Positions 27,725 to 63,426 of a stretch of 64,000 nucleotides of DNA are shown here, one piece after another. The first letter of the stretch is position 1; each line of letters begins with the position of its first letter. The notes beneath the pieces were generated by a model. It was not told the DNA's origin, searched no databases, and saw nothing but the letters and a program-made list of their open reading frames with translations. The stretch is from Blastocatellia bacterium. GTDB taxonomy: Bacteria; Acidobacteriota; Blastocatellia; RBC074. Location: positions 7,084 through 71,083 of the forward strand of contig DATEMY010000594.1 of assembly GCA_035275345.1 (NCBI GenBank), written 5' to 3'. The translations under genes and the position numbers were made by a program.

Positions 27725-27734
27725 CGCAAACGTA

Positions 27735-29198: not shown

Positions 29199-29239
29199 CG
29201 GCAATCAGTAGTTAGAAGAAGGGAAGAGAGGGAGTAGTA

Positions 29240-30442: not shown

Positions 30443-31753
30443 ATGACAGACGGAATCATAACCATCGAAAAAGATCCGCGGATCATAGCCGCCGACTTTA
30501 CATCAGAGACTGAAATCATCGAGAAGGCGCTGCTTCCCGATGCCGCCGACGCGTTGCGCGGAAGAGATATGCTCTGCTTCAGCCATGACTGGAGCGGCGA
30601 TCCCTTGTCGAAGACGCATTTGATGCGATTGATGGCGCGCGACAACCGTGTTCTCTGGGTTAATTCCATCGGCTATCGCACGCCGACGGCGTCAAAGGCC
30701 GATTTAAGTAGAGCCCTTAAGAAGTTGTTGGCGGCGGCGAATCCGTTGCGCGAAGTCGAACCAAACATGTTTACGCTCAACCCGCTGGTTATCCCCGCTT
30801 ACGGCAATCCCGGCGTGCGAGCGTTCAACCGACGATTTCTGCGCTGGCAGGTCAGGCGCGCCATGCGACAGCTCGAGTTTGACCGGGTAATAAATTGGGT
30901 CTTCAACCCGGCGGCTTCCGTGATCGCCGGCGAATTGGGGGAAGAAACCGTCATTTACTACTGCGTCGATGAATACACTGCGTTTACCGGGGTGGATTCC
31001 GATTCGCTGGCTGAGTTGGAACGACAATTGATGATGCGCTCCGACCTTGTCATCGTCTCAGCCGACCGTCTTTATCGATCCAAAGCGCCGTTCAACCCGC
31101 GGACAGCGCTCGTCAGGCACGGCGTGGATTATTCGCACTTCAGCCGAGCGCTCGACCACCGGACGAACGTGCCCGATGAGATCGCCCGTCTTCCTCGCCC
31201 GGTGATCGGCTTCTTCGGACTGATCGCCGATTGGGTGGATGTGGAGTTGATCGCGAGCGTGGCGGAGCGTTTTTCTACGGGGTCGCTGGCGCTGCTGGGC
31301 AAAGTAACAACGGACATTTCAATGCTCGAGCGGGCGCCCAATGTTCATTTGTTGGGACGTAAGCATTACAGCGAGCTGCCGGCGTTTTGTAAGGGGTTTG
31401 ATGTGGCGTTGATGCCGTTTCGCATCAATGAGCTGACATTGAACGCGAATCCGCTCAAGGCCCGCGAATATCTTGCGGCCGGCTTACCGGTGGTTTCGAC
31501 CGCGATCCCCGAAGTCGAGGCGCTAGGTCTTTGTCGAATCGGAGTAGATCGAGAAAGTTTCCTGTTCGAGGTCGAGCAGTCCCTGCTCGACCCTGGACCC
31601 AAAGTGGAGCGAAGCGAGTCGGTTCGTGGCGAAAGTTGGGAGACGCGAGTCGATGAAATACGGAGCCACCTCGCCAGATTGTTTGATGATGAAGAGTGGT
31701 TCGAGAACGGAAAATGCTGGAAGACTGATTATCTCGATTGTGGAAGTAATTGA
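30443..31753 (+). CDS. GT-B glycosyltransferase (GT1-family, TuaH-like)
   Basis: The ATG immediately follows the previous TAA. The C-terminal Glycos_transf_1-like region is VIGFFGLIADWVDVELI...GRKHYSELPAFCKGFDVALMPFRINELTLNANPLKAREYLAAGLPVVST. Confidence 0.75.
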   Translation: MTDGIITIEKDPRIIAADFTSETEIIEKALLPDAADALRGRDMLCFSHDWSGDPLSKTHLMRLMARDNRVLWVNSIGYRTPTASKADLSRALKKLLAAANPLREVEPNMFTLNPLVIPAYGNPGVRAFNRRFLRWQVRRAMRQLEFDRVINWVFNPAASVIAGELGEETVIYYCVDEYTAFTGVDSDSLAELERQLMMRSDLVIVSADRLYRSKAPFNPRTALVRHGVDYSHFSRALDHRTNVPDEIARLPRPVIGFFGLIADWVDVELIASVAERFSTGSLALLGKVTTDISMLERAPNVHLLGRKHYSELPAFCKGFDVALMPFRINELTLNANPLKAREYLAAGLPVVSTAIPEVEALGLCRIGVDRESFLFEVEQSLLDPGPKVERSESVRGESWETRVDEIRSHLARLFDDEEWFENGKCWKTDYLDCGSN

Positions 31754-31766
31754 AGAGAGGTAATTC

Positions 31767-33512
31767 ATGAAAAGATATGAAACACTCAAAGTGATAGCAT
31801 CCATTATATTCGCGATCTGTCTTTGCGGCTCCTTAAATGGTTGTTATCAGCGGCCGGTTTCTGCGCAGTTCGACATCGATATCATTGAATCTGTAATGAA
31901 TCGCGAGCGACCATCGTCACTCGCTCCCGGTGATCCGGAACTCCCGCGCGTCAGTCTGGATACGACTTATATTGCGCCCTCCGGGAAAACCATCAATGTC
32001 GCGGCGGGCAGCGATGTTCAAAAAGCTATCGACCAGGCGACGCCCGGCGATGTGATCATGCTCCAGGCGGGCGCAACCTTCACCGGCAATTTCAAACTGC
32101 CGAACAAGAGCGGGACGGGCAAAAGCGGCTCGAGCTGGGTCGTCATCCGCACATCGGCGTCGGACGCGAGTCTTCCGGCTCCTGGCGCGCGGATCACACC
32201 GCAGTTCAGCTATGTGATGGCGAGACTGATCAGTCCGAATTCCAATCCAGTCGCTCAAACGGAAGCCGGCGCGCATCACTATCGTTTCATCGGAATCGAA
32301 TTCGGCGTCGCGCCTGGTCAGAATATCTACAATATCATCAATTTCGATGCGGAACAGAAATCTCTCGCCACAATCCCGCATGACCTGATCATCGATCGTT
32401 GTTATATACACGGAAATGATAAGGGAAATGTCTCACGTGGAATTGCGCTCAACTGCGCGCGCGCGGCGGTGATCGATTCGTATATCTCCAATTGCCACGG
32501 CGAGGGATTCGATACGCAGGCGATCGCCGGTTGGAACGGCGCCGGCCCTTTCAAGATCGTCAATAATTATCTCGAAGGAGCCGGCGAAAACTTCATGCTC
32601 GGAGGCGCCGACCCCGCGATCAAAGACCTCATCCCATCGGACATAGAGTTCCGATTGAATCACGTTTACAAGCCGCTTTCGTGGAAGAAAGGCGATCCGA
32701 CTTACGCGGGGATCCCGTGGACGATCAAGAACCTGTTCGAGCTGAAGAATGCGCAACGCGTATTGATTGATCGCAACATGTTCGAGAACAACTGGGCGGA
32801 CGCGCAGAATGGCTTTGCGATTCTCTTCACGCCGCGCAACCAGAATGGCCGTTCACCCTGGTCGGTGGTTCAGGACGTGACCTTTACCAATAATATCGTG
32901 CGGCATTCCGGCGGCGCCTTCAACATCGCCGGGCCGGACAATGAGGCGGGGAAGAGTCTTCCATCCCAGCGGATACTGATAAAGAACAACCTCATCGACG
33001 ACATAGATGGCGTGAAGTGGGGCAGCGTGAATCATGGCCCGGCGGATAGCAGGTTTATTCAAATCGTCGGCGGGCCGCTCAATATAACGGTTGATCACAA
33101 CACTATTTTCCATACCGGCAGCTTGATCGTCGCTGATGTGGCGCCGAGTCCGGGCTTTGTCTTTCGTAATAACTTCGCGCCCCACAACAAGTACGGCGTG
33201 ATGGGCAGCGACCGCGCTCCCGGCGTTGATACGCTCGATTTCTATTTCCCCGGCCATATTTTCAGTAAAAACGTTATCACGGGAGCTCAAAGCCGGAATT
33301 ATCCGAAAGATAATTTCTATCCGGATTCACTTGAAAAAGTGGGCTTCGTAGATCGCGCGAAGGGAAATTACCGGCTGACGGCCGGCAGCTCGTACCGAAA
33401 AGCCGGTACGGATGGCAAAGACATCGGATGCGACTTCGATTCATTGGTCGATCAGCAGGTTACTTCGTCGTCCGTTCAGGCCGCGTCAGGCGGCGGAACA
33501 GTGAGGAGATGA
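31767..33512 (+). CDS. Secreted (possibly lipoprotein) right-handed beta-helix protein
   Basis: The signal peptide ends in a possible lipobox (ICLCGSLNGC). Beta-helix features include ATPGDVIMLQAGATFTG, IIDRCYIHGND, VIDSYISNCHGEGFDTQAI, IVNNYLEGAGENFMLGG, FTNNIVRH, IKNNLIDD and FRNNFAPHN. Confidence 0.7.
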   Translation: MKRYETLKVIASIIFAICLCGSLNGCYQRPVSAQFDIDIIESVMNRERPSSLAPGDPELPRVSLDTTYIAPSGKTINVAAGSDVQKAIDQATPGDVIMLQAGATFTGNFKLPNKSGTGKSGSSWVVIRTSASDASLPAPGARITPQFSYVMARLISPNSNPVAQTEAGAHHYRFIGIEFGVAPGQNIYNIINFDAEQKSLATIPHDLIIDRCYIHGNDKGNVSRGIALNCARAAVIDSYISNCHGEGFDTQAIAGWNGAGPFKIVNNYLEGAGENFMLGGADPAIKDLIPSDIEFRLNHVYKPLSWKKGDPTYAGIPWTIKNLFELKNAQRVLIDRNMFENNWADAQNGFAILFTPRNQNGRSPWSVVQDVTFTNNIVRHSGGAFNIAGPDNEAGKSLPSQRILIKNNLIDDIDGVKWGSVNHGPADSRFIQIVGGPLNITVDHNTIFHTGSLIVADVAPSPGFVFRNNFAPHNKYGVMGSDRAPGVDTLDFYFPGHIFSKNVITGAQSRNYPKDNFYPDSLEKVGFVDRAKGNYRLTAGSSYRKAGTDGKDIGCDFDSLVDQQVTSSSVQAASGGGTVRR

Positions 33513-33519
33513 AATTCTG

Positions 33520-34764
33520 ATGCGTTCATGCGAGCCGAGTTATTTCGAAAAACTTAAATGGTCGCTCCCGTGGCTGAGTCGCTATCCGATTTGGCGAGCC
33601 GGGGAATTAACGCGCAGGACGTTTGGCGCAATATCCGTCGCGGGGGCTGCGCATCTCATTCTGGTTGTCGCGAATCACTTCGAGCCGGCATGGGATGAGA
33701 AATACGGCATGGTTGATTTGGCGACTCAGCTATCGCGCGTAGAGGAATGGTGTGATCAGGCGCGCGCAATAGGCATGGCGGCGCGCGATTCTGATGGGAC
33801 GCCGTTCCGCCACACATACTTCTATCCGGGTGAGCAGTACCACCGGCCGTTGCTGGATCGATTGGCGAAACTCGAGGCCGACGGCTTTGGAGAAGTTGAG
33901 ATCCACCTGCATCACGGAATGGAGCGGCCGGACACGGCCGAGAATTTGCAGCGATCGTTGGAAGAGTTTCGCGACACTCTTGCGGAAGAGCATCAGTGCC
34001 TTTCGCGGCTAGATGGGGAAGGGCAGCCGCGATATGCGTTCGTGCACGGCAATCTGGCGCTCGCCAATTCAATGGGCGGGCGTTGCTGCGGTGTGGATTC
34101 CGAGATGCGCATTCTGGCCGACACCGGATGTTACGCCGATCTGACTCTGCCCGCGGCGCCGTTGCAGCCACAGACGCCGCGAATAAATGCGCTGTATCAA
34201 TGCGGTCGCCCGCTTAACGAACGCATGCCGCATTGGACTGGAAAAAATCTGCGGGTCGGCGCAGAAGTAACGCTACCGATATTGTTGACCGGGCCTCTGG
34301 TTTTCGATTGGAGCCGGAGGCGGAGCGGGTTGCCCGCGCCGAGAATTGACGACGGCGTTGTTAAGACAGGTTATCCGATCACCCCGATGCGGCTGCGCCG
34401 CTGGCGTGGAGCGGGCATTTCAGTCTCAGGGCGACCGGAGTGGATTTTCATCAAACTTTATTGCCACGGATTTTTCACGAATGATCAGGCCGTAACCATC
34501 GGCGAGCCGGCTCTACGGTTTTTGCAAGAGACGCTTGAACAAGTGGACCGCGACGGGCGATTAAAGGTGCATTTCGCCACGGCGCGAGAGGCGTTCAATA
34601 TCGCTCTCGCCGCCGTCGATGGACGCAGCGGTGAGCCGAATCAATATCGCAATTATCGGTTGCGTCCGATCAGGCGGACGTCTGCGCCACAGCCCCGAAA
34701 TAAGCATCGCGATACGAATGTCGAGGCGATGCGCCGAGAAGGAGAGTATGAGCGCTGTATATAA
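33520..34764 (+). CDS. Hypothetical protein (414 aa) with a His-cluster; function unknown
   Basis: The ORF lies 7 nt after the upstream gene, within the operon, and has non-repetitive globular composition. Notable motifs are HLILVVANHFEPAW, GEVEIHLHHGMERPDT, YAFVHGNLALAN and CCGVDSEMRILADTGCYADLT. I could assign no family by eye. Confidence 0.6.
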   Translation: MRSCEPSYFEKLKWSLPWLSRYPIWRAGELTRRTFGAISVAGAAHLILVVANHFEPAWDEKYGMVDLATQLSRVEEWCDQARAIGMAARDSDGTPFRHTYFYPGEQYHRPLLDRLAKLEADGFGEVEIHLHHGMERPDTAENLQRSLEEFRDTLAEEHQCLSRLDGEGQPRYAFVHGNLALANSMGGRCCGVDSEMRILADTGCYADLTLPAAPLQPQTPRINALYQCGRPLNERMPHWTGKNLRVGAEVTLPILLTGPLVFDWSRRRSGLPAPRIDDGVVKTGYPITPMRLRRWRGAGISVSGRPEWIFIKLYCHGFFTNDQAVTIGEPALRFLQETLEQVDRDGRLKVHFATAREAFNIALAAVDGRSGEPNQYRNYRLRPIRRTSAPQPRNKHRDTNVEAMRREGEYERCI

Positions 34765-35572
34765 CTATGATGGGATTACGACGCGTCTCGCCTCAACGGA
34801 TGGCGGGAGCGAATCGAGCAGGATGGCAATGTCGGTTTATCGTAACGCGCCGCAGGAGCAGGATCGCGTAAGCGATTTAATGGGCGTCATTCCAGATGGG
34901 CTGGCTTCAGTTCTGGACGTCGGCGCGCGCGACGGCTATCTCTCGCGACTGCTGGCCGGGCGTTTCGCTTCGGTTACGGCGCTGGATTTGGAAAGTCCCG
35001 CGATCTCTCACGATCGGATCACCTGCGTTAAAGGCGACGTCACGCGCCTGGAATTCCCCGACAACTCATTCGACGTGGTCGTTTGCGCGGAGGTGCTTGA
35101 ACATATTCCACCCGAAGGACTGGAACTGGCGTGTAGTGAATTGAGCCGTGTCGCCGGTTCCCACGTCGTGATCGGGACTCCTTACCGTCAGGACATTCGT
35201 GTTGGTCGAACAACCTGTCAGGCCTGTGGCCGTAAAAATCCGCCCTGGGGACACGTTAACGTTTTTGATGAGAGGCGACTTGAGAGGCTCTTTCGTCCCC
35301 TTCAACACGTCAGCACGACGTTCGCCGGCTCCAACCGTTTTCGAACGAATGCGATTGCCGCCTGGTTGATGGACCTCGGCGGCAATCCGTGGGGAAGTTA
35401 CGATCAAGAAGAAGCCTGTATTTATTGCGGGAGCCAGATCGAAATGCCCGCCGAACGAAGTTTCATACAAAAGCTCAGTTCGAGATTGGCATATTTAATA
35501 AACGCCGCGCAGTCATATTTTGTCTCCTCCAGACCCAGTTGGATTCATATGGTCTTCAATAAACGACAATAG
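34747..35572 (+). CDS. Class I SAM-dependent methyltransferase with CxxC...CxxC zinc-ribbon insert
   Basis: AAGGAG (34738-34743) precedes the ATG at 34747. Motif I is VLDVGARDGYLSRLLAGRFASVTALDL and the post-I/II segment is FDVVVCAEVLEHI. The Cys pairs are TCQACG and CIYCG. Confidence 0.8.
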
Positions 35573-35645
35573 TTTCTTACTGACTGTAAACGAAGAAAAG
35601 GTCATAGCATAAAAGCGCGACTCTGATCGATAGCGCGCATTAAAT

Positions 35646-37154
35646 ATGAGCGAAAAACATTACCAGATCGAATTACCGCGGCGCCTGCTCCAACGCAGGA
35701 CGCATTATGTCGAATCGGCGACAAACACGGCGCTTGCGCCGCAGAGATTGCTTTACATCGCTTATCAATTTGCGCCGAGTTTGGAGATGGGCGCGCGCTC
35801 CTGTGTTCAGATAGCGCGCCATCTGCCTGCATACGGATGGTCTCCAGTTGTGCTTACGATCGATGAAAAATACGTCGAGGGACAATACCTTGGGCGCATC
35901 GATGAAGTAGCTCAACTCGGATTACCGGATGAGGTGGTCAGGACCCGGCTTCTGCCTCACCCCTTCGATCTGTATCGCTGGCTGAAAGCTTCACGCTCAG
36001 GTAACTCTCAGCGCGGCCGCGAGAATCGCGGAGACGCCACATCGATTGAAGTCGATGCGCCGTTGCGCGCCAAGAACAGGTTGCGTCGTTTCCTCATCTC
36101 GACGCTGAGTATCCCTGACTTGTGCACTGGATGGATTTTCCCGGCCGTCATCGCCGGGCTGAAAGCGGCGCGACGCTCAGGAGCGCAACAACTCTTCTCA
36201 TCAGGTCCCTTCTGGTCGAATCATCTCGTCGGGTTTGCGCTCTCCTATCTGACTGGATTGCCATGGACCGCGCATTTTCGCGATCCCTGGGTCGCCGGCG
36301 CTCCTGAAAAGCCCGCCAGCGCGATCTCCGCTAAGATAAATGAATGGTTGGAGCGGATAATCGTTACCCGCGCATCCGCTGTCATAAGCGTCACCGAGGA
36401 GCATTCAGATACTTTCCGATCGGTGTATCCATTCCTCTCCCCCGGTAAATTCATCACCGTTCCGAACGGTTATGACAGCGACGAATGGGAAAATCTGCCG
36501 GCCGATATACAAGCCGACGAGAAAAGTAAAGAAAAGTTTTTGATTACTTACGCCGGAACATTTTATATCGAACGTGATCCGCAACCTTTGTTTAGAGCGA
36601 TAAAGTCATTGATCGACGACGGGGAAATTGGGCGCGATCAGATTCAAGTAGATTTGATCGGCTGGTGTGATACCAGTGAGGGACGCTCGGTGCGGGAGAT
36701 GGCCGATGAATGTGGGGTGTGCGATTGCATTAATATCCTTGGTCCGCGCAGCCGACCTGAGACTCTCTATCGGATGTCCCAAGCGAACCTGCTCCTCTTG
36801 CTGGCTGAACGGTTCGTCATACAAATACCGGGGAAGACCTATGAATACTTGCGAGCCGGCCGACCGATTTTGGCGCTCACATCGAAAGGCGCGCTCGCTA
36901 ATTTTTTGAGAAGGATCGGTGGTGGTTGGGTCGTCGACCCAAAGGATGACGCCGGCATCGTGTCGGCTTTGAAAGAGAGCGTCAGGCAATGGAAACAAGG
37001 ACGACAAGGTCGCGTCGCTGATCAGTCTTTAGTCGCCGGCTTTGACCGTCGCGTTCTCGCCGGTCAATTAACGAAATTATTCGATCGTATAAGCGCTCAA
37101 TCAAAACGGATCGCATCGGTACAGCGGACGCAAACCACCAGAAAACCAAAATGA
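35646..37154 (+). CDS. GT-B glycosyltransferase (GT4-like)
   Basis: The N-terminus is LLYIAYQFAPSLEMGARSCVQIARHLPAYGWSPVVLT. The later region is FLITYAGTFY...LLLLLAERFVIQIPGKTYEYLRAGRPILALT, which is EX7E-like. Confidence 0.75.
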   Translation: MSEKHYQIELPRRLLQRRTHYVESATNTALAPQRLLYIAYQFAPSLEMGARSCVQIARHLPAYGWSPVVLTIDEKYVEGQYLGRIDEVAQLGLPDEVVRTRLLPHPFDLYRWLKASRSGNSQRGRENRGDATSIEVDAPLRAKNRLRRFLISTLSIPDLCTGWIFPAVIAGLKAARRSGAQQLFSSGPFWSNHLVGFALSYLTGLPWTAHFRDPWVAGAPEKPASAISAKINEWLERIIVTRASAVISVTEEHSDTFRSVYPFLSPGKFITVPNGYDSDEWENLPADIQADEKSKEKFLITYAGTFYIERDPQPLFRAIKSLIDDGEIGRDQIQVDLIGWCDTSEGRSVREMADECGVCDCINILGPRSRPETLYRMSQANLLLLLAERFVIQIPGKTYEYLRAGRPILALTSKGALANFLRRIGGGWVVDPKDDAGIVSALKESVRQWKQGRQGRVADQSLVAGFDRRVLAGQLTKLFDRISAQSKRIASVQRTQTTRKPK

Positions 37155-37190
37155 GGATAACGATGAGCGGAAACTCGATACAGGTAAGAA

Positions 37191-38819
37191 ATGAGTGATT
37201 GTTTTCTACATATACGGCGCGAAGCGGACGGCTTTGAAATAGCGGGCCCGGCGGCGGGTATGGCCGGTCACAAGATACAAAACTCGGGGAGAACTGTACC
37301 CGACGGTATCTTTGCGGAATGGGCCTGGGATGGCGGTCGTCTTCAGATCCGTAATGATAGATATGGCTTTCATCCAATATATTACTTCGCAAACCGTGAC
37401 GAGATAGCCGTTTCTACCTCGATTGTCCGTTTGTTGGAGGCCGGCGCGCCGCGCACGCTCGATGAAGCCGGATTGGCGGCATTCCTGAGACTCGGTTTTT
37501 TTCTGGGAGAAGACACTCCATTTCTGGCGATTCGCGCGTTGCCCCCATCTTCCGTACTGGAATGGCAAAACGGCGAGCTTGCGGTTTCAGGACAGATCAC
37601 GGTCATGAAGCCTTCTTCGCTCAGCCGCGGCGCCGCTATAGACGGTTACATATCGCTGTTCCGCGATGCGATACGACGGCGTCAACCATCCAATCCGAAT
37701 GTCGTCGTACCCCTGAGTGGAGGGCATGATTCCCGGCATATTCTGCTCGAATTATGTCGGCAGAACAGTCCCCCCGATTTTTGCGTGACGGCGCGAGCTT
37801 TCCCGACGATAGAAGTTTACAACGAGTTTGAGGTGGCTTCGGCGCTGTGTCGATCACTTGGTCTATCACATCTGACGCTTGACCAGCGCGGATCGATGGC
37901 GCAAGCGGAGCTCAACAAGAATTTGAGAACGGGCTTCTGTTCATTCGAGCATAATTGGTACCTGGTTGTCGCTGACCACTTGAATCGAACCGCCGGAGCG
38001 GTCTACGACGGCATCGGTGGCGATGTGCTTTCAGCAGGTCCATTCCTGTCGGAGAAGCGCGTCGATTTGTGCGAACGAGGACGCCTGAGGGAATTGTCTG
38101 ACGATCTTATTTCAGTCATCACCGACCAGCTAATTGAAAACTCGCTTTGTCCGGATCTGGCGCGCCGGCTCAATCCTGAGGTGGCCTTTGCGCGTTTTGA
38201 AACGGAGTTTCGAAAACACCTCGATGCGCCCGATCCCGTTAGCTCCTTCCATTTTTGGAACCGGACGCGGCGATCGATCTCGCTCTGTCCATACGGGTTG
38301 CTTCGAGATACGCGGGAGGTTTTCAGTCCATATCTGGATCACGAAGTTTTTGATTTGCTGGCGTCGCTGCCTGCCCGAATGTTTTTGGATCAGACCTTTC
38401 ATACCGAGACGATTCAGCGCGCCTATCCTGAATTCGCTCATTTTCCATTTTCGGAGCGAAAGGACCCGGGCGGGTCGTATCGAAAGCCTTATCGGCTTTA
38501 TGCGCTGGCCGCAATGCGCTATCTCCTCCGCGCGCGTTCGCATATCCTGCTTCGCGGCTCCTATTTCGTCCCGCGATTAATGCGCTGCCTGATAGATCGG
38601 AGCTATTTACCCGCCGCGGAATGGATCGGATCGTTCGCGCTGTTCCTCGCTCAATTGGAATCGATCATTGGCGTCTCAGCGCCGCCATCGGATCTACCTT
38701 CGTCGCCCGACGCGCCGGAACGAAGCAGGCAAGCAAGGCGACTAGCGCCAGCAGCAGCGCAATCACACCGAAAGTCGCCGGATCGGTGGCGCTCACGCCG
38801 AAGAGCAGATTCTTCATAG
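37191..38819 (+). CDS. Asparagine synthase-related (AsnB-like) PP-loop ATP-pyrophosphatase protein
   Basis: The PP-loop is VVVPLSGGHDSRHIL. The N-terminal Ntn-like domain lacks the Met-Cys start and begins MSDCFLH. The last ~50 codons overlap the convergent permease gene and look non-native. Confidence 0.75.
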   Translation: MSDCFLHIRREADGFEIAGPAAGMAGHKIQNSGRTVPDGIFAEWAWDGGRLQIRNDRYGFHPIYYFANRDEIAVSTSIVRLLEAGAPRTLDEAGLAAFLRLGFFLGEDTPFLAIRALPPSSVLEWQNGELAVSGQITVMKPSSLSRGAAIDGYISLFRDAIRRRQPSNPNVVVPLSGGHDSRHILLELCRQNSPPDFCVTARAFPTIEVYNEFEVASALCRSLGLSHLTLDQRGSMAQAELNKNLRTGFCSFEHNWYLVVADHLNRTAGAVYDGIGGDVLSAGPFLSEKRVDLCERGRLRELSDDLISVITDQLIENSLCPDLARRLNPEVAFARFETEFRKHLDAPDPVSSFHFWNRTRRSISLCPYGLLRDTREVFSPYLDHEVFDLLASLPARMFLDQTFHTETIQRAYPEFAHFPFSERKDPGGSYRKPYRLYALAAMRYLLRARSHILLRGSYFVPRLMRCLIDRSYLPAAEWIGSFALFLAQLESIIGVSAPPSDLPSSPDAPERSRQARRLAPAAAQSHRKSPDRWRSRRRADSS

Positions 38820-41575: not shown

Positions 41576-42364
41576 TTACTTTGGTTTCCGCGCGCGGATA
41601 TGGAGGAAGTAGGCCACGACCTGCGCGTCTTGCATGTCTGGGCAGACTCGGACGGTTTCGTCGTTCGGTCGCGGCTCTTCGATGCGCTCAAGGCGAAAGC
41701 CAGTTTCGATCAGCAGATTCAGCCACTGGCTCACGGTTCGTGTGAAGCGGGGTGTCTTGAACTTCGGCAATCCCTGCTTCGCCTCCGGCGGCGCAGCTCC
41801 GAAGAGCTACTCTGAGATCTCTCCGCTGAGATTTCGGAAGTAGTCGCCGACCTCAATCGCATATGTCATGCGGTTTTCGTCGCGCAGATTTCTGCGATGG
41901 GGCGTATCGAAGCAGGGATGGGTGATGGAGAACTGCAGAAACCCACGGGGCTTCAGGACGCGATAAGCGTCGGCGAGCGCGCGGTCTGTTTCGGGAATGT
42001 CCATCAAGCTCATGAAGGCCGTGGCGAAGTCGAACGCCGCGTCGGCAAACGGCAGTTCCACGGCGCTGGCGACCCGATAGTCGATGCCCAATGGGTCTTG
42101 TTCCTCCAATTGTTTGGCATGCGCTATAAAATTCTCCGAAATGTCGATGGCTGTTACCAGGGCTCGACGTTGGGCCAGCAACCTTGTGTTGTGACCTTCT
42201 CCACAACCAATATCCAGACCTGAAAGTCCTGTCACGTCCGGCAGCATTGCGAAGAAGGCTGGTGTGTTGAGGTAGTCCCGATAGACGTCAAAACCGGCTC
42301 GCGACAGTTTCGTCCAGGCCTCAGCGTTGGCGTTCCAAAAACGCCCTACTTCTTCGTGATCCAT
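41576..42364 (-). pseudogene. Class I SAM-dependent methyltransferase interrupted by an in-frame TAG
   Basis: ORFs 41807-42364 and 41576-41770 are in the same frame (594 nt apart). The minus-strand reading is ...YFRNLSGEISE-TAG-LFGAAPPEAKQGLPKFKTPRFTRTVSQWLNLLIETGFRLERIEEPRP..., a continuous methyltransferase. Motif I is GLDIGCGEGHNTRLLA. The stop codon is at 41807-41809. Confidence 0.7.
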
Positions 42365-42555: not shown

Positions 42556-44721
42556 ATGCCAGCCAGACCCGGCGCCCCATTGTTGTTGTTGGGATTTTTT
42601 CTTGCCGCGCTTTGCGCCGCGGCCACATTCCTCGACCGGCCAGCCGCTTCTGCGCAAGTCATTGCTGCGAAAGATAAAATTACGCAGGGGCAATTGCGGA
42701 TACTTGGCGCGCAAGGCAGGCCAGGCGGCCTATGCCCGCTAAAACATACCGACGTGAAGGCTGAAATCAGCGGCTTTCTTGCGCGCGTCACTCTCACGCA
42801 GGAGTTTTATAATCCGAAGGAGCAGGAGATCGAGGCGGTCTATCTTTTCCCCTTGCCGACGCGTTCCGCAGTGGATCAGTTGACGATGGATGTCGGCGGG
42901 CGGGTGATCCGCGGCGAGATCAAGCGTCGCGAGGAAGCGCAGTGGCTCTTTGCGCAAGCGCGCAAGGAAGGCCGCGTCGCCGCGCTCCTGGATCAGGAGC
43001 GACCGAATCTCTTCACCCAGTCGGTCACTAACATCCCGCCGGAGGCCGCCGTCAAAGTGACGATCAGTTATGTCGAGACGCTTACTTATGAAGACGGCGT
43101 CTATGAGTTCACGTTTCCAATGGTCGCGGGCTCACGCTACATCCCCGGCGATAAGAAGCCAGGCGCCGAGCCGGACAAGGGGAAACAGGCCACAGTGGGA
43201 ACCGATCAGGTCCCAGTCGCCGCGCGCATCACTCTGCAGCGCCTGCCCAAGGGGATGCGGCCAGGCCACGAAATCTCGCTCGAAGTCGTAATCGACAGCG
43301 GCGTCCCGTTGGAGCAGGTCAGGTCGGAATTGCACGAGATCGAAGTCGACCGCGACAGCCATCATCAAGCCGTCGTCAGGCTCAAAGAGAAGGCCGTGAT
43401 TCTCGACCGTGACTTTACTCTGCGGTTCGGAGTAGGCGGTTTGCAGATCGCCGACGCTGTGCTGGCTCATCGAGACGAAAGAGGCGGCTATTTCACGTTG
43501 ATGCTGCAACCGCCAACTCGCGTCGCGGCGGATGACGTCACTCCGAAGGAACTAGTTTTCGTCCTGGACACATCCGGATCAATGGAGGGATTGCCGATCG
43601 AGACGGCGAAGCGCGTGATTCGCCTCGCGCTCGATGGGTTATATGAACACGACACTTTCAACCTCATCACGTTCGCCGGAGATACTCACGTTCTGTTCGA
43701 TAAACCCGTCCTGGCGACCAGAGAGAATCTGCTGAAAGCGAAGGGGTTATTGGACGGGAAGCAGGGAAGCGGCGGAACCGAGATGATGAAAGCGATTCGC
43801 GCGGCGCTGGCCGATACCGACGCGCAAGATCACATCCGCATAGTCTGCTTCCTGACAGACGGAGATGTCGGCAATGACATGGAGATCATCAGCGAGGCGC
43901 AACGGCATCCGAAGGCCCGCGTCTTCTCGTTCGGGATCGGCAATTCGGTCAACCGTTTCCTGCTCGACAAATTGGCCGAACTGGGGCGCGGCGAAGCCGA
44001 ATATGTCTTTCTGAATCGCGGCGACCGGAAAGACGCGGAGGAGGCGGCCGCCGCCGCCAAACGGTTTTACGAACGAGTGCGCGCGCCGCTGTTGACCGAC
44101 ATCAGCGTGGATTGGAATGGGTTGCCGGTGGAGGACGTCTATCCCAAGCGGCTGCCCGATCTGTTCAGCGCCAAACCGCTCTTCATCACGGGTCGCTATA
44201 CGGGCGGCGCGAGCGGCGTCATACGGTTGCGCGGCCGAGCCGCCGGCGCCGATTCTTTACGCGAGATCAATGTCGACTTGCCGGAATCGGAAGAGCGCCA
44301 TGGCGCGCTGGCGTCGCTCTGGGCGCGCACTCGGATTGACAGTTTGATGGCGCAGGATTACAGGGGATTGCAAACCGGCAATGTGCGAAAGGATATTGAA
44401 GAGGAGATCACGCTACTCGGACTCGACTACCGTCTGATGACACAGTTCACTTCATTCATTGCCGTCGGTGAACCCGCAACCTCCACGAGTGGAGCGCCAG
44501 AACGAGTCGCCGTTCCCGTGGCCGCGCCGAATGGAACGGCAATGAATAGACCCCCTGGCATATATTCGACCGTGACCGTCACGGCCAGTTCTCCCACGCT
44601 CGATACCAGCAGCGTGGAGATCGCCGCAACGATTGAGGAACGGCGCCTGGACCAGTTGCCGCTGAATATGGGGCAGCCGACCGAATTGGCGAAGCTGACT
44701 CCGGGCGCGGCGCCTGCCTGA
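42556..44721 (+). CDS. Secreted VIT plus von Willebrand factor A (vWA) domain protein whose C-terminus is a TonB-receptor plug linker
   Basis: A GGAGG RBS precedes the start and the protein has a signal peptide. The VIT segment is LKHTDVKAEISGFLARVTLTQEFYNPKEQEIEAVYLFPLP...RGEIKRREEA. The vWA MIDAS motif is LVFVLDTSGSMEG. The tail STVTVTASSPTLDTSSVEIAATIEERRLDQLPLN resembles the receptor linker/plug entry. Confidence 0.85.
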   Translation: MPARPGAPLLLLGFFLAALCAAATFLDRPAASAQVIAAKDKITQGQLRILGAQGRPGGLCPLKHTDVKAEISGFLARVTLTQEFYNPKEQEIEAVYLFPLPTRSAVDQLTMDVGGRVIRGEIKRREEAQWLFAQARKEGRVAALLDQERPNLFTQSVTNIPPEAAVKVTISYVETLTYEDGVYEFTFPMVAGSRYIPGDKKPGAEPDKGKQATVGTDQVPVAARITLQRLPKGMRPGHEISLEVVIDSGVPLEQVRSELHEIEVDRDSHHQAVVRLKEKAVILDRDFTLRFGVGGLQIADAVLAHRDERGGYFTLMLQPPTRVAADDVTPKELVFVLDTSGSMEGLPIETAKRVIRLALDGLYEHDTFNLITFAGDTHVLFDKPVLATRENLLKAKGLLDGKQGSGGTEMMKAIRAALADTDAQDHIRIVCFLTDGDVGNDMEIISEAQRHPKARVFSFGIGNSVNRFLLDKLAELGRGEAEYVFLNRGDRKDAEEAAAAAKRFYERVRAPLLTDISVDWNGLPVEDVYPKRLPDLFSAKPLFITGRYTGGASGVIRLRGRAAGADSLREINVDLPESEERHGALASLWARTRIDSLMAQDYRGLQTGNVRKDIEEEITLLGLDYRLMTQFTSFIAVGEPATSTSGAPERVAVPVAAPNGTAMNRPPGIYSTVTVTASSPTLDTSSVEIAATIEERRLDQLPLNMGQPTELAKLTPGAAPA

Positions 44722-44733
44722 GCGGTCACGTCT

Positions 44734-47082
44734 GTGGGTCTTCGTGCAAGACCCGAACCTCTCATTAACCAGGGCGACGCCAGCGTTAGTCTCGATGGCG
44801 TCGATTTGACCAACGACGTGACAGGCGGAGCGCTTGCGGCCGCGCCGCTCGGCGCGCTTAAGGAGATGAGCGTCACCAGCTTCGGCGTCCAGGCGGACCA
44901 GGGACGCGTCTCCACTGCCACCATCCAACTTGCGACCAAAGCCGGAACACACGGGTGGCATGGAACGGCGTCGTTTTTCCGTCGCGGCGATCAATGGAGC
45001 GCGTTGCCCGCGACCTTTGAACGCAATGGGACTGTCCCTTCATTTGGCCGTTCGCAATCCGCAGGCGCGCTGGGCGGCCCAATATTCAAAGACCGCGCCT
45101 TCTGGTTCGGATCGTTTGAAAGTTTGCGACAGCATTCGCTGTTGCAGGCCGGAGAGCGCGACCTCGAAGCGCAAAGGATCCGAAACGGACTGAGCGCGAC
45201 TCCGTTGACGTCCACACTCGGACTGTTGCGAGCGGACATGGTTATTTCCGACCGTGACCGGCTGGAGATGCTCTACGCCGCCGAACGAAGCGATGGCGCC
45301 GATCTGCCGGCAATGCAGCGATCACTCGCATCCGCGTCGCAACGACAGCGCTTCGACGAGGAATTCAATCTAGGGGCGCTGGTTTACACGCGAACCATTT
45401 CGCCGACGCTCGTGGCGGATGCGCGCCTTGGCTTCAGCGGGTTGCGGGCCGCGAGCGCTGCGGCGACGAACGGACTGCAACTCAACTTTCCCGACTTACA
45501 GGCGGGCGCGCCTTTCCGAGCTCCGGCGCTGCCGCGCCACAATCGTACGCAACTGTCGGGCAATCTCATCAAGATCGCGGGAAGACACACGCTCAAATTC
45601 GGAGGCGAGATGCATCGGATTAGCGCCGAACAGGCGCTCGGCTTCGGTTCCGGTTCGATCGAATTCGTAGAGAACTTCGCGAGCGCTGACCGCAACGGCG
45701 ACGGGAGAGTCGACGACGACGATTTGCTCATCAGCGTCACGCTGCGCAAAGTCTCGTCGCAGGGGCGCAACGCTTATTTGCGGAACACGCATCTCGCCGC
45801 CTTCGCGCAAGACGATTGGCGCGTCCGCCCGAATCTAAGGCTCAACCTGGGCGCGCGATGGCAATTCGACACGAACGAGAAGAACCTGAGTGGTTACGCC
45901 AACATCAATCCGCTCATCCGCCATTTCCTGCGCGGCGAACGGACTCCTGACCGTAATAACTTCGCGCCGCACGCGGGCTTCGCGCGGTCTTTCGACAATG
46001 GACGGTTCGTCGCGCGCGGCGGTTATAACCTGCTTTTCGACCGCATCCCGCTGCAATACATCGCGCTCGAACAGACGCTCGACGGTCGCAATACGGTCAT
46101 TGCGGCGACCGGCGGCAAGGTCTGGCCGAACGCGCCGGGAATCAACATCCTGGACAACTCCTTGCAGAATCCGATGACGCAACAGGCGTTGTTGGAGCTG
46201 CAGTGGCTCCCCACAAACAACCTGATCGCGCGCGCGGGCTATCTGCACAGCTTCGGTTCCCACATCCTGTTGGGGCGCAGTCTCGGCGCGGTCTTCAATC
46301 CGCTGACCGGCGGACTCGACCGCGTGGTTAATCTCGAATCGAGTGGCAAATCGAAATACGACGCGTTGAACCTGAGCGTCGAGAAGCGGCTGTCGCAGCG
46401 ATGGCAATTGCTCGCCAACTACGCGTTCTCGAAGTCGTTCAATTACGCCAACGGCGACCAACTGCCGTTCTTTACCGGAATGGCCGACCCGAACAATCTG
46501 CGGCTCGAATACGGACCTTCGTCGTTCGACCGCAGGCATCGCTTCAGTATGAGCGGGCAGTACGAAATCCCGTTCGATATCCACGCCGCCGTCGTCTGGA
46601 CGATGGCTACAGGGACGCCGATGGATATTTTGCTGCCCGACGCGAGCGCCCGCCCGCCTTTTCTGCAGCGCAACGCCGGCGGACGACTCTTCCGCACGGC
46701 GGACGAACTCAACCGATTTATCACATCGCTCAACGATGCGGGCGGCGTGAATGGCGCGCCGCTACCTCTCGTCGGCGCCGGCGCGAAATTCAATGACAGT
46801 TTTCAGAGCTTCGATCTGCGGCTCACGAAAAGATTCCGGTTGCGTGGCGACGCCAGGTTTGAACTTGGCGGAGAGTTCTTCAATCTCTTCAACCAGACCA
46901 ACATTCTAGGATGGTCGAACTATTCCGGTTTTTCCAACGCGCTGGCGCGTGACAGCGCAAATGCAGGCGATCCGGGATTTCTAAAATCAACAGGCTTCGG
47001 CCGTCCACTTACCACAGCAGGCAGGCTCTTTACGGCCGGAGGTCCGCGCAGTTTTCAGTTCGTGGCGAAGTTCTCTTTTTGA
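44734..47082 (+). CDS. TonB-dependent receptor plug/beta-barrel portion lacking its own signal peptide (in frame with the upstream VIT-vWA ORF)
   Basis: The ORF is in the same frame as 42556-44721, separated only by a TGA (44719-44721) and 4 codons. Plug-like segments are SVSLDGVDLTND and IQLATKAGTHGWHGTASFFRRGDQW. Barrel repeats follow, and the protein ends FQFVAKFSF. The only available start is a GTG with no leader peptide. Confidence 0.7.
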   Translation: MGLRARPEPLINQGDASVSLDGVDLTNDVTGGALAAAPLGALKEMSVTSFGVQADQGRVSTATIQLATKAGTHGWHGTASFFRRGDQWSALPATFERNGTVPSFGRSQSAGALGGPIFKDRAFWFGSFESLRQHSLLQAGERDLEAQRIRNGLSATPLTSTLGLLRADMVISDRDRLEMLYAAERSDGADLPAMQRSLASASQRQRFDEEFNLGALVYTRTISPTLVADARLGFSGLRAASAAATNGLQLNFPDLQAGAPFRAPALPRHNRTQLSGNLIKIAGRHTLKFGGEMHRISAEQALGFGSGSIEFVENFASADRNGDGRVDDDDLLISVTLRKVSSQGRNAYLRNTHLAAFAQDDWRVRPNLRLNLGARWQFDTNEKNLSGYANINPLIRHFLRGERTPDRNNFAPHAGFARSFDNGRFVARGGYNLLFDRIPLQYIALEQTLDGRNTVIAATGGKVWPNAPGINILDNSLQNPMTQQALLELQWLPTNNLIARAGYLHSFGSHILLGRSLGAVFNPLTGGLDRVVNLESSGKSKYDALNLSVEKRLSQRWQLLANYAFSKSFNYANGDQLPFFTGMADPNNLRLEYGPSSFDRRHRFSMSGQYEIPFDIHAAVVWTMATGTPMDILLPDASARPPFLQRNAGGRLFRTADELNRFITSLNDAGGVNGAPLPLVGAGAKFNDSFQSFDLRLTKRFRLRGDARFELGGEFFNLFNQTNILGWSNYSGFSNALARDSANAGDPGFLKSTGFGRPLTTAGRLFTAGGPRSFQFVAKFSF

Positions 47083-54045: not shown

Positions 54046-55557
54046 TCAAACCAATAGTTTGCGCACTACATTGCCGCTTACGTCGGTCAGGCGGAAGTCG
54101 CGTCCCTGGAAACGGTATGTCAGCCTGGCGTGATCCAATCCCATCAAATGCAGGATCGTCGCGTGAAGGTCATGAACCTCGACCGGGTCTTCAACCACGT
54201 TGTAGCCCAGTTCATCGGTCCGTCCGATGGTGACGCCGGGTTTGACCCCGCCGCCGGCCATCCACATCGTGAACGCGCGCGGATGATGGTCGCGGCCCAA
54301 AAAGCGCGATCCTTTGCGCTCCTCATTCATCGGTGTGCGCCCGAACTCGCCTCCCCAGATCACAAGGGTCGAATCGAGCAGGCCGCGATCCTTGAGGTCT
54401 TTGATCAACGCCGCCGCCGCGCGATCTGTCTCACGGCAAAGGTATGCGAGCGAACTGACGATATCGTTGCTGGGCACGTCCCCGTGCGTATCCCAACCGC
54501 GGTGGAAGAGCTGTACGAATCGCACGCCGCGCTCTACCAGACGGCGAGCCAGCAGGCAGTTGTTGGCGAACGAAACCTCGCCGGGCCTGGCGCCATACAT
54601 CTCGTGGACGAGGCTCGACTCCTTTGCGATGTCGGTCAGCTCGGGCACGCTGGTCTGCATTCGGTAAGCCATCTCGAACGCGGCGATGCGCGTCTCGATC
54701 TCCGGGTCGCCGACCTCCCCCAGATGCAATTGATTCAGGTCGCGCATTGTGTCGAGTGATTCTCGCCTCGCTTCGGCGCTCAGTCCTTCGGGGTTGTTCA
54801 GGTATAACACCGGCTCGCCCTTGGCGCGAAACTCCACGCCCTGGTAGACGGTCGGCAGAAATCCCGTCCCCCAACATGATTTGCCTCCGTCCGGGTTTCC
54901 TCGCCCCGAAAGCAGCACGACGAAGCCCGGCAGGTCGCGGTTCTCGCTTCCCAGGCCGTAAGTCAGCCACGATCCGACGCTGGGCCGCCCAATGATCTGG
55001 TGGCCCGTGTTGATGAAGATTTGCGCGGGGGCGTGATTGAATTGCGTGGTTTGAGCTGAACGGATGATGGCGATCTCGTCGGCGATGGAAGCAGTGTGCG
55101 GCAACAGCTCGGAGATTTCGGCCCCGCACTCTCCGTGACGCTTGAAGCTGTGCGGCGAGCCGAGCAGTCGCGGCGTCCCTTTGATGAAGGCGAACCGCTC
55201 GCCCCTGGTGAAGCTTTCGGGGATCGGCTGGCCGTTCAATTCTTCCAGCTTGGGCTTGTAATCGAACAGATCGAGTTGCGACGGCCCGCCCGCCATAAAA
55301 AGATAGATGATGTTCCGGGCCTTGGGCGCGAAGTGTGGAGGCTTCTGCTCCACCGGCGATATTGAATTGGCCGCCGATCCACCCGGTTTGGCTTGTTTGG
55401 CCGGTTCGGCCTGTTTGGCCTGTTTGGCCTGTTTGGCCTGCGCGAAGATATTCTGATCGAGCATCGATGACAGCGCCAGCGCGCCGATACCGAACCCCGT
55501 CTGTCGGAAGAAGTGGCGTCGCGTTATCTGCTTTAACGATTCGTTCTTTTCATTCAT
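54046..55557 (-). CDS. DUF1501 domain protein (sulfatase-like fold, Tat signal)
   Basis: The twin-arginine signal is [22 protein letters not shown]1501 hallmarks are [30 protein letters not shown] and GRDHHP. The gene is paired with an upstream DUF1553 gene, as is typical. Confidence 0.9.
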
Positions 55558-55575
55558 AAAATCTTCTCGCCCTCT

Positions 55576-58500
55576 CTACTCCTTCGTCAATGTCTCATCC
55601 AGGCTTAGCAGCGTATTGGAGACCACGGTCAAAGCCGCAAGCTCCGCGAGATTCGTCTTTTTGTCCGCGTCATTCGATAGCGTGCGCGCCGCCTCGACGT
55701 CTTTGGTGAACCGGGCGAGTTGGCGTTGATATAAGGCCTCAAGCGCCTCGATCTCCTTTTCATTGGGGCGGCGAGCCATGCAGAGTCGGAACCCGTATGT
55801 CAGCCGCTCGCGCAATCCAGGCCCGGCTTCGGCCAGGACGCGTTTGGCCAGTCCTCGGGCAAAATCGAAGAAGACCGGATCGTTGAGCGTTGTCAACGCC
55901 TGGAGCGGCGTGTTGGTACGGAGGCGTCGGACAGCGCAGAACTCGCGGCTCGGAGCGTCGAAGGACGTCATACTTGGCGGCGGGGTCGTGCGCCTGATCG
56001 CCGTGTAGACGCCGCGGCGGTAGCGATCTTCGGGTCTCCCGATCGGCGAGGGATTGACGCTCGGCCCGCCGACGGCTCGATTGAGCAGGCCGCTCGCCGC
56101 AAGCCCGATGTCTCGCACCATCTCGGCTTCCACACGGAAGCGAGGCCCCCGCGACAACAGCCGATTGTACGGGTCGCGCTCGCGGAGCGCCGGAGTGACT
56201 TTGGACGATTGGCGGTAGGTGGCCGAGGTCACGATCAATCGGAGCAGCGACTTCATGTTCCAGGGTCTGGGAGATATGGTACTAATGGGACTGATACGAC
56301 TTATGGGACGCTCTGTCTCGCTGTCTCCTCGTCCCCCTGTCTCTCCGTCTCTCCGTCTCTCCGTCTCTCCGTCTCTGAACCTGACCGCCAGCCAGTCAAG
56401 CAACTCCGGATGGCTGGGGCGCTCGCCCTGCGTTCCGAAGTCCTCGCTCGTCTCGACAAGACCGCGACCGAAGATTTGCTCCCAGAACCGGTTGACCGTC
56501 ACGCGGCTGCTGAGAGGGTTCTCTTCATCAACGAGCCAATAGGCCAGCCCGAGCCGGTTGGGCATGCGTTCCGCCGGTAGCGGCGGCAGAACGGCTGGAG
56601 TGTCGGCGTAGACCTTCTCACCGATGTTCGTGTAACTGCCGCGCGCCCGCAGGTAGGTCGAGGGACGCTCGAACGAAGCGCGCTCACGCATCACCAGCGC
56701 CTTTTCGATTCTGATCGCGTTGATCTCCACCTGCAGTTTGGCGAGCCGATCTCGCTCCGCCTCGAGTAGCGGCGTGGTCGCAAGGAATTCTTTTGTCAGA
56801 GCCGCTTTCTGCGCAGCGTTTCGCCGCGCGGGAGGAACGACGAGTATGGGACGCAACTCCGCCGGCAGTCCGGCGACGAAGGCCGGGACTTGCGCCGAGG
56901 TCACCGAGAGGCGGAAGCGCCCGATGCTCTGCCTGCGGCTGAACTCCGATCCGAATTTCAGCCTCACTTTGAGCAGCGTCTCGCCCTCCATCATCAGGGG
57001 TTTTTCAAGATTGAGGACGAGCTGATAACCGAGTCGCTCGTCACGTTTCAGCGCGTCCACTCCCCACCCGACCTCGTTCGTCTCGTCGAGCAGGTTGGCC
57101 GGGGCGAAGTAGGTTGGAGCGGAGGTCCCGCGGTAAGCGTCGAGATATTCGTCGGCATTGGCCTCCCTGAACTTCAGCTTGCGCGTCTCACTCGGCGAAC
57201 CGGCGGGCGAGACCTCGACCTCGAAGCGGTTGAGAATGAAGTTGCCGTATATGTCGCGCCCCGGCCCGCCGCGCGGCAATTTCTCGTGCGGCAGCGCTTC
57301 GAGCCTGACGCCGGTGACTCCTCGCAGATTGGCCTTGGCGACCACCGTATAGGTTTCCATACCGGGGTTTGCGCCAGTCGCCAGAATCGACCTGTCTTCC
57401 AGCTTCGTGAGCGTCGTCCCATTGTCAGCAGATATTTCCGAAGTATCGAGCGCGATCCAATCGGCCTGGGCTTCTGAGAACTTGCGCTCCCATTCTTCCA
57501 TCGCCGCTGCGAGCGCGGGCGTGACGGTCTTGAGACGTTCTTCGAGGCTTTTGATCTCGGCTTGCAGTCTGGCGCGCCTGGCGGCTTGCTCCGGCGCCGG
57601 CGTCTCGATCTCCGGCTCGACCACCCAGCCTTCGTTGCCCGGTTGCTGATAGATCGCGTATTCGTAGTTATCGAAGAACGCTAACAGCTTGTAATACTCC
57701 TTTTGCGTGAAGGGGTCGTATTTGTGGTTGTGGCACTGGGCGCAGCCGATGGTCGCGCCGAGCCAGACGGTTCCTGTCGTGTTCACGCGATCGATCAACG
57801 TCTCCCAGCGCGCTTCCTCGTCATCGACGCCGGCTTCCTGGTTGAGCATCGTGTTGCGGTGGAAGCCGGTGGCGATCTTCTGATCGATGGTCGCGTTCGG
57901 TAACATATCGCCAGCAATCTGCTCGACCGTGAATTGATCGAATGGCATGTCCTGATTGAGCGCGTTGATCACCCAATCGCGATATTTCCACATCATGCGC
58001 GGCGTGTCGCGCTCGTAGCCGTTGGAGTCGGCGTAGCGCGCCAGATCGAGCCAGGGACGCGCCCATCGCTCGCCGAAATGCGGGCTGGCCAGCAGACGGT
58101 CAACCAGCTTTTCATAGGCGTTCGGCGAAGAGTCGGCGAGGAATTGATCGACCTCCTTTGGGCTTGGCGGCAGCCCCGTGAGATCGAGATAGACACGGCG
58201 GATGAGTGTCTCCTTCGCGGCTTCGGGCGACGGCGCGAGTCCTTCCTTCTCAAGCCGCGCAAGGATGAAACGGTCAATCGGGTTGCGCGCCCAGGCGGCG
58301 TTCTTAACTACCGGCGGCTCCGAGCGAACAGGTTTGATATAAGCCCAATGCTTCTGAATCCTCCTCTCGCTCTCTCCCGCTCTCGCCCTCTCGCTCTCTC
58401 CCTCCGGCCATTCCGCCCCCTGATCGATCCACTTACGGATCATCTCGATCTGTTCGGGTCTGAGCGGAGCGCCGCCCATCGGCATTCGGGCCTCGCCGTC

Positions 58501-58821
58501 TTCGCCGAGAATACGGCGCAACAACAAACTCTTTCCGGCCTCGCCGGGGTTGATCACCGCGCCCGAGATCCCGCCTTCGAGCGCCGACTTCCTGTTGTCG
58601 AGCCGCAACTGGCCCCGCGCGATCTTAGACCCATGACATTTATAACAGGCCGCTTCGAATATGGGCCGAATGTCGCGCGCGAAATCGATGGTTTGACTGG
58701 CGGCGGAGCCACCGAAGAACGGCGCGGACGCCGCGCCCAAACAAAAGAGGCAGAGCAGTAACTTGCCTCTATTCTTCCACATTCTTACGGGACGCTTCAT
58801 AAGCCAACTTCTCAAAGTCAT
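55576..58821 (-). CDS. PSCyt1 (c-type haem CxxCH), DUF1549 (PSCyt2) and DUF1553 (PSD1) domain protein
   Basis: The protein has a signal peptide and the haem motif ACYKCHG. The DUF1549 region is [19 protein letters not shown]...[12 protein letters not shown]. The segment [19 protein letters not shown] follows. The DUF1553 tail is [12 protein letters not shown]. The true start may be MKRPVRMW at 58800. Confidence 0.9.
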
Positions 58822-63417: not shown

Positions 63418-63426
63418 TTCATCGCC

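Follow-up and report, generated by a model that had tools for sequence, protein, structure and literature searches.

The window examined here is a stretch of 64,000 nucleotides (nt) from a Blastocatellia bacterium (assembly GCA_035275345.1, contig DATEMY010000594.1), and positions 42556-47082 of its forward strand very probably form one gene rather than two, with an in-frame UGA that is recoded. Two open reading frames (ORFs) occupy the interval. ORF1 (42556-44721) encodes 721 amino acids (aa), and ORF2 (44734-47082), which opens with GTG, encodes 782 aa. Both share one frame, and their sole interruption is a TGA at 44719-44721. The initial annotation of this DNA had described a single TGA splitting one frame, and the remainder of 42556-47082 was indeed open as far as the true stop, a TGA at 47080-47082 (+) that closes the barrel ORF after the protein end ...AKFSF. 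Read through, the product is ~1508 residues long, with a VIT-vWA module, a plug and a barrel in that order, and is predicted from its sequence to be an outer-membrane protein resembling TonB-dependent transporters. Among the possible decodings of the UGA, we somewhat favor selenocysteine as the most likely option. Reassignment of the genetic code was rejected, as TGA is the normal stop of 19 of the 33 long ORFs in the window. Other interrupted genes were sought in the window and none was convincing.

The TGA at 44719-44721 (+), which may encode selenocysteine and falls in the plug's first apical loop, is conserved at the identical codon in relatives. TGA stands at this codon in 23 further public loci, from at least seven further lineages (at least eight in all); the TGA-bearing loci include L082 together with L083-L087, L091, L092 and L097-L105, which a metagenome scan and contig look-ups supplied. 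Pairwise amino-acid identity among the TGA-bearing lineages was 60-88%. The upstream frame, where complete, spanned 697-743 codons and, where the true stop was reached, the downstream frame stayed open for 786-817 codons. A search of representative proteins returned P0121 (782 aa, 81% identical), which starts at VGLRARPEP exactly as ORF2 does, and on its contig the upstream gene ends in TGA 12 nt before that start. At least 17 database clusters of barrel-only proteins of 744-813 aa begin directly after the TGA. The window locus itself recurs in ENA contig L104 (ERZ27257057 k141_2133725), which differs at 4 of 8349 nt, and in an independent assembly from Logan (L105) that is identical over 3035 nt; both have the TGA. 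Sense codons occupy the site in some relatives, namely CCA (Pro) in P0001/L001 and TGC (Cys) in P0002, P0003 and L002, while a second group of fusions, clade B, has Gly, Ala or Pro at the TGA column. None of the uninterrupted VIT-vWA-transporter fusions carries a UGA.

Nei-Gojobori ratios of nonsynonymous to synonymous substitution (dN/dS) were 0.19-0.35 after the TGA for all pairs of TGA-bearing genes (dS 0.19-1.09) and 0.18-0.29 before it. A relative-rate test showed that post-stop acceleration is absent in the window lineage (43 vs 54 unique changes), and decay after the stop was rejected on the basis of this test and the dN/dS values. Purifying selection, together with the conservation of the TGA, argues that the downstream 786 codons are translated.

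The TGA lies inside the plug. In BLASTP, the intact receptor of this window (12564-16316) aligned over 197 aa straight through the TGA at 30% identity (E 1e-14), in keeping with the initial annotation, which had seen in the end of ORF1 a parallel to the plug entry of that receptor. A family profile of the plug region matched the solved plugs of PirA, FepA and FusA (E 1e-10 to 6e-9), so that the end of ORF1 is related to receptor plugs. By profile alignment the TonB box is STVTVTA (residues 671-677; 44566-44586, +), the consensus ETVTVTA falling on DTIVVTA at residues 12-18 of FepA. The first part of the plug (LPLN..., a helix and a PG motif) extends from 44587 to 44718 (+), directly before the TGA, and is supported by BLASTP, by the plug profile and by the low dN/dS before the TGA. 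The remainder (44722-45036, +) was assigned from strands at model residues 20-88 and from the profile match to solved plugs. The barrel (45037-47082, +) matches PF25183 (OMP_b-brl_4, 8.5e-81) and ends in Phe, as had been noted from the sequence. Pfam Plug (PF07715) gave no match with the window sequence, and phmmer with the single sequence against the PDB found no plug.

ORF1 and the post-stop part were modeled separately with AlphaFold. The post-stop model had a predicted template modeling score of 0.66 and ~21-22 strands, with predicted local distance difference test (pLDDT) values of 80-95 in the strands, and all 50 of the matches listed by Foldseek against the PDB were TonB-dependent transporters (E 2.5e-19 to 1e-15). 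The gene thus has the three features of a TonB-dependent transporter: a barrel, a plug inside the barrel and a TonB box ahead of the plug. A TonB-dependent transporter would also draw energy from TonB-ExbBD and import a substrate.

Relatives without the stop encode the whole arrangement as one polypeptide. A search with the read-through product found P0001, an uninterrupted protein of 1507 aa with 74% identity over its full coverage, the uninterrupted fusions P0002 and P0003 at 55% identity, and more than 40 further uninterrupted homologues of 1550-1640 aa. All uninterrupted fusions carry VIT, VWA and PF25183 and all come from Blastocatellia/Pyrinomonadaceae; their database names are "TonB-dependent receptor" or "Ca-activated chloride channel family protein". 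A scan of species-representative genomes found at least 16 loci with single ORFs of 1540-1740 codons. The fusion of VIT-vWA to a receptor in a protein of ~1500 aa, which the initial annotation had proposed and suggested checking by homologue search, is therefore genuine, with dozens of uninterrupted examples. Its statement that VIT-vWA takes the place of the usual CarboxypepD_reg domain also holds, since a domain scan of ORF1 gave no match to CarboxypepD_reg (PF13620/PF13715), and the protein falls outside the Oar-type subclass on this count; the other receptor of the window (12564-16316) does carry that domain. The architecture had been put forward as one not known to have been described. Our literature searches for it found no description, and a census of the N-termini of 34,893 TonB-dependent transporters recognized five architectures, with VIT-vWA in none (PMC6434023).

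The barrels of the fused proteins are not of one kind. The window barrel is nearest, at 44-49% identity, to ordinary CarboxypepD_reg transporters of ~990 aa from Blastocatellia. Clade B fusions (1550-1640 aa) have barrels just 24-27% identical to it, no closer than the unrelated receptor in the same window. In a neighbor-joining tree of the VIT-vWA module, unfused forms separate the two fused clades. The low barrel identities and this tree indicate that fusion to a barrel arose at least twice or that barrels were swapped.

Stand-alone VIT-vWA paralogues also occur, and ~10 of 74 have vestigial plug motifs at the matching place. In P0116, P0120, P0093, P0096 and P0008 these remnants (LPxNGRN..., NRSRSNSFAIDGVS) lie at residues ~650-735 and are weak and short, although positionally consistent. 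Their sequences suggest that stand-alone proteins with plug remnants may descend from barrel fusions. Other paralogues are fused to different partners. P0025, P0030, P0053 and ~30 others (930-980 aa, named "TonB family protein") consist of VIT-vWA, a Pro-rich linker, TonB_C and a conserved C-terminal domain of ~90 aa, and in a single case, P0108, the module is fused to a MotA/ExbB domain. Stand-alone VIT-vWA genes adjoin CarboxypepD_reg transporter genes, in either order, in L019 (7620-13732) and L078 (6288-13220), a possible association only, since the locus ranking favors such pairs.

Beyond the TGA itself, the nucleotide sequence that follows it is unusually constant. The block GG(T/G)CTTCGTGCAAGACCCGAA (44737-44757, +), a candidate recoding signal resembling a selenocysteine insertion sequence, was exact in 15 of the 15 TGA-bearing loci scanned and was absent elsewhere in the window and from the other 88 loci. 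Across eight lineages only 16% of the amino-acid-invariant columns with degenerate codons were also codon-invariant, yet codons +7 to +12 were all codon-invariant, the longest such run in ~1500 codons (6, next 3). At the nucleotide level, the longest stretch of the gene without any variation measures 18 nt (next 13) and starts 21 nt past the T of the TGA. By synonymous conservation, 12-codon windows starting at +1 to +5 ranked 13-61 of 1359. With the preceding G at 44736, the block forms the putative hairpin GGGUCUU-CGUGC-AAGACCC (44736-44754, +), 14 nt past the UGA. The hairpin of the window sequence has 7-8 base pairs and the loop CGUGC, with a folding energy of -10.3 kcal/mol (z -2.6). In the UGA-free L001 the 3' arm is altered to GCC AAA.

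Decoding of the UGA as selenocysteine fits these data in several respects. As expected of a selenoprotein gene, orthologues keep the in-frame UGA and are conserved as coding sequence on either side of it. One sister lineage (P0002, P0003, L002) has TGC at the UGA column, one substitution from TGA. The hairpin has GU in its loop and lies at a distance from the UGA like that in E. coli fdhF. SelA was identified in the Blastocatellia loci L041 and L072 by TIGR00474 (530-535 bits, cut-off 268); L070 matches E. coli SelA over its full length in tblastn (E 5e-86) and was not scored against TIGR00474. According to the mechanism we propose, the ribosome would decode the conserved UGA and insert selenocysteine on a signal from the invariant block that can form a hairpin 14 nt further on; ribosomes that stop at the UGA would yield the 721-residue VIT-vWA protein, either a by-product or a second isoform. 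Selenoproteins are known in Acidobacteria (PMC1794560, PMC12013277), and predictions from other phyla include a TonB-dependent receptor and an outer-membrane barrel that are selenoproteins (PMC12013277, PMC13188914). Our literature searches for selenocysteine use in Blastocatellia found no report.

The three selA genes (L041 14782-16203, L072 14032-15465 and L070 10171-11526, - strand) lie 4-6 kb from a stand-alone VIT-vWA gene. In these loci, which come from metagenome-assembled genomes of Blastocatellia, the neighbor of selA encodes a histidine kinase, not SelB. Membership of the gene product in the FCYXU selenoprotein receptor family (NF049945) was rejected, with a score of 9.4 bits against a cut-off of 825 and no FCYxU motif.

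Several observations weigh against selenocysteine. The pairing of Cys with the UGA column comes from an alignment in which C was written for UGA, which favors that pairing, although an ungapped count from the conserved PG agrees with it. The closest UGA-free relative, P0001, and the nearest ordinary transporters (PGNTLAP, PGNLPAP) have Pro at the site, so the site residue is not universally Cys, and a redox motif of the CxxU type is absent at the recoded position. The hairpin was perfect in only 5 loci. The others have G.A at the fourth pair and fold at -5.3 kcal/mol with z ~0, like shuffled sequences. RNAalifold on seven lineages showed no covariation and no compensatory change and did not recover the simple hairpin, and an Rfam scan around the UGA gave no match. 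Neither selA, selB, selD nor a selenocysteine tRNA (tRNA-Sec) was found in the 64-kb window or in ~140 kb of UGA-bearing contigs, a sample too small to be informative, and a search for the same genes over all fetched loci returned SelA alone, in the three other Blastocatellia loci. Counting instead against the functional model, the fused genes have no conserved neighborhood beyond lineage-local synteny that would point to a substrate or partner.

Some of these same observations would suit a different decoding, in which the UGA is leaky and is read through in a programmed manner by a standard or suppressor tRNA. We regard this as the strongest of the alternatives to selenocysteine but as rather unlikely. 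The stop would be kept to set a ratio between an abundant soluble periplasmic form of 721 residues with a free TonB box and a rarer full-length transporter, and the invariant downstream block would act as a stimulator of read-through. Conservation of the UGA, selection on both sides and the nucleotide element fit read-through equally well, and a hairpin that is imperfect in most lineages, together with a site residue that is not critical in relatives, as the Pro in P0001 and the nearest ordinary transporters indicates, sits comfortably with it. The stand-alone paralogues with vestigial plug motifs imply that a barrel-less form is viable. Acidobacteria are also reported to carry unusual candidate nonsense-suppressor tRNAs (PMC5389517). 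On the other hand, the base following the UGA varies between G and T, so there is no conserved leaky tetranucleotide context, and the Cys codon of the sister lineage and the presence of SelA in the class are better accommodated by selenocysteine. To our knowledge there are very few precedents for programmed UGA read-through of chromosomal bacterial genes. The fuller proposal, a leaky stop with its own 3' stimulatory element that yields two products in a set ratio from one gene, we consider unlikely.

It is very improbable that the interval holds two functional genes, with ORF1 encoding a periplasmic VIT-vWA protein and ORF2 a barrel made by termination and reinitiation at the GTG 12 nt downstream. 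In many assemblies public annotation pipelines do place two genes here, 12 nt apart, and purifying selection acts on both parts. However, the initial annotation had pointed out that ORF2 has no signal peptide and only a GTG start, which the sequence bears out, and ORF2 begins in the middle of the plug, so that another polypeptide would carry the TonB box together with the initial ~45 residues of the plug. The supposed start, codon +5, is GTG, ATG or CAG (CAG in L097) across lineages, so separate initiation is not conserved; no Shine-Dalgarno sequence lies at the proper distance, and the stop-free relatives are single polypeptides. A pseudogene, or a sequencing or assembly error hiding an intact gene, the two explanations between which the initial annotation had wavered, is the least probable of all and is refuted by the conservation and selection data: the window does have private, damaging differences from L104 elsewhere (methyltransferase TGG to TAG, ORF1 P283L), but the same TGA recurs in three assemblies and 23 related loci at dS values up to ~1, with mutual identities of 60-82% that exclude copies of one erroneous sequence, and is followed by 786 or more codons without a further stop or frameshift, under selection equal to that upstream.

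The N-terminal half of the recoded gene encodes an export signal and the VIT-vWA module, as had been read initially from the signal peptide, the VIT domain and a vWA domain with DTSGS; Pfam matches confirm the domains. The Sec-type signal peptide (residues 1-33; 42556-42654, +) was read from the sequence by its hydrophobic core and ASA|Q cleavage motif, forms a helix at residues 7-24 in the AlphaFold model and lacks a lipobox. The VIT domain covers residues 62-172 (42739-43071, +; PF08487, 1.1e-35). The vWA domain (43549-44007, +) is matched by Pfam VWA, VWA_2 and VWA_3, with VWA at residues 332-484, and has a complete metal-ion-dependent adhesion site (MIDAS) made up of D338-x-S340-x-S342 (DTSGS, 338-342), T408 and D435; these residues were invariant in homologue sets of 23 and 46. 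The C-terminal part of the module (44008-44475, +), of the type found in ITIH proteins, extends to ~residue 640 according to the AlphaFold fold and the PARP4 alignment. In the ORF1 model residues 45-640 are folded (mean pLDDT 71.5) and residues 642-721 are disordered; this disordered end, the last 80 residues, comprises the linker, the TonB box and the start of the plug. Homology to PDB entries extends over ~600 residues of the module, with PARP4 at 5e-40 (aligned to residue 648) and ITIH4 at 2e-25. The order of VIT and then vWA with the MIDAS pattern DxSxS...T...D places the module with the ITIH/PARP4-like group. Its TIGR03788 score, 508.3 bits, is below the cut-off of 551.65, and the protein was not assigned to that family.

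Because VIT-vWA is N-terminal to the TonB box, it should be periplasmic and not a surface adhesin. The adhesion or ligand-capture role suggested by the initial annotation is doubtful, as exposure at the surface would contradict the established topology of these transporters. We propose instead that, after Sec-dependent export and barrel assembly, the plug would fill the barrel with the TonB box facing the periplasm, and VIT-vWA would hang there on a linker of ~30 residues, much as CarboxypepD_reg and STN extensions do. The MIDAS would bind a periplasmic or inner-membrane partner at the interface between TonB and the receptor, and the paralogue fusions to TonB_C and MotA/ExbB suggest that the module acts at this interface. 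In a profile alignment the recoded residue falls on G59/N60 of FepA, at the start of the first plug loop. In FhuA the segment PG-VSVGT-R81 forms apex A and contacts ferrichrome, which would place the loop with the recoded residue toward the ligand pocket. If selenocysteine is inserted there, its selenolate might coordinate a soft metal or take part in redox reactions.

Among the closest known counterparts are the Oar-type transporters, such as Oar of Myxococcus xanthus (PMC6434023), which consist of a CarboxypepD_reg extension, a plug and a PF25183/PF00593 barrel. They share with the present protein the barrel family PF25183, the TonB box, the plug, 22 strands, the C-terminal Phe and the presence of an extra domain between the signal peptide and the TonB box. 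In contrast, their extension has ~85 residues and the VIT-vWA extension ~600, and the plug described here lacks the usual SVNGQR motif and a Pfam Plug match and has a conserved in-frame UGA. The uninterrupted fusions of Blastocatellia/Pyrinomonadaceae (P0002, P0009 and P0019) agree in domain order and taxon, with VIT-vWA parts 54-74% identical.

The predicted selenoprotein TonB-dependent receptor (FCYXU, NF049945; BuS5) likewise has an in-frame UGA proposed to encode selenocysteine and homologues with Cys (PMC12013277, PMC13188914). Its selenocysteine is in a CxxU motif that is not within the first ~430 residues as printed and so would lie beyond the plug, whereas the site described here stands alone in the first plug loop; moreover, FCYXU belongs to another family and another phylum and lacks the VIT-vWA module. 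The VIT, vWA and C-terminal module is common to ITIH1/ITIH4, vault PARP4 and the "marine proteobacterial sortase target" family TIGR03788, but here there is no sortase sorting signal, and the module is tethered to a plug rather than being secreted or bound to vaults. Periplasmic vWA modules linked to the Ton/Tol machinery have been proposed as motor-coupled force transducers (PMC12204202). A TonB-like helix holds those proteins in the inner membrane, whereas the protein described here would be fixed in the outer membrane by its own barrel and has a VIT domain.

The gene adjacent to ORF1 encodes a class I S-adenosylmethionine-dependent methyltransferase (41576-42364, -) with an in-frame TAG at 41807-41809, where the three homologues retrieved have Trp (ISEWLFG). 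L104 has TGG at this codon. The stop is thus private to the window, a variant or an error, and is unrelated to the conserved TGA. General nonsense suppression, considered on account of this TAG, was rejected: all 120 of the homologues listed were uninterrupted, and L104 has TGG. Synteny of the methyltransferase was absent in relatives. The window and L104 differ at 41808, 41819, 43403 and 47314. P283L in ORF1, one of the changes relative to L104, replaces a Pro that is nearly invariant in homologues and looks damaging; like the TAG, it has no connection with the conserved TGA.

Elsewhere in the window, 193-11337 and 21510-38819 are large clusters for polysaccharide biosynthesis and export, with a Wzy-like ligase, a flippase, an epimerase, a GNVR/ParA-type tyrosine kinase, Poly_export/SLBB, glycosyltransferases and an asparagine synthase-like gene. 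At 54046-58821 (-) a PSCyt1/PSCyt2/PSD1 (DUF1549/DUF1553) cytochrome-like protein is followed by a DUF1501 protein, a pair typical of Planctomycetes and some Acidobacteria. Two tandem membrane proteins of ~150 aa are encoded at 62971-63897 (-) in the same frame with one TGA between them, the second with a Met start of its own; on visual inspection they resemble a pair of half-size EamA/SMR-like transporters rather than a broken gene.

A family of TonB-dependent transporters extended by VIT-vWA and carrying a conserved recoded stop is undescribed in the literature searched. In all public annotations seen, this widespread outer-membrane family of soil acidobacteria is split into two "genes", one half named "hypothetical protein" or "outer membrane receptor protein involved in Fe transport" and the other a VIT/vWA or "Ca-activated chloride channel" protein; recognition of the recoded UGA repairs these. 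If the stop is leaky, competition of the short form for TonB, or for the partner of the module, is conceivable, the locus would be a snapshot of the origin of the stand-alone VIT-vWA paralogues with vestigial plug motifs, and the stop codon would serve regulation in a way not described so far for chromosomal genes of bacteria. If the UGA encodes selenocysteine, as we favor, the gene would represent a selenoprotein family not known before, in a soil class that is largely aerobic, and selenocysteine would sit on the ligand-facing apex of the plug, a hint that the mouth of a TonB-dependent channel hosts soft-metal or redox chemistry. The VIT-vWA module of ~600 residues that precedes the TonB box, missing from the published census, brings the kinds of N-terminal extension to six, and the fusions of its paralogues to TonB_C and ExbB-like domains point to a periplasmic layer of the acidobacterial Ton system that has yet to be explored.

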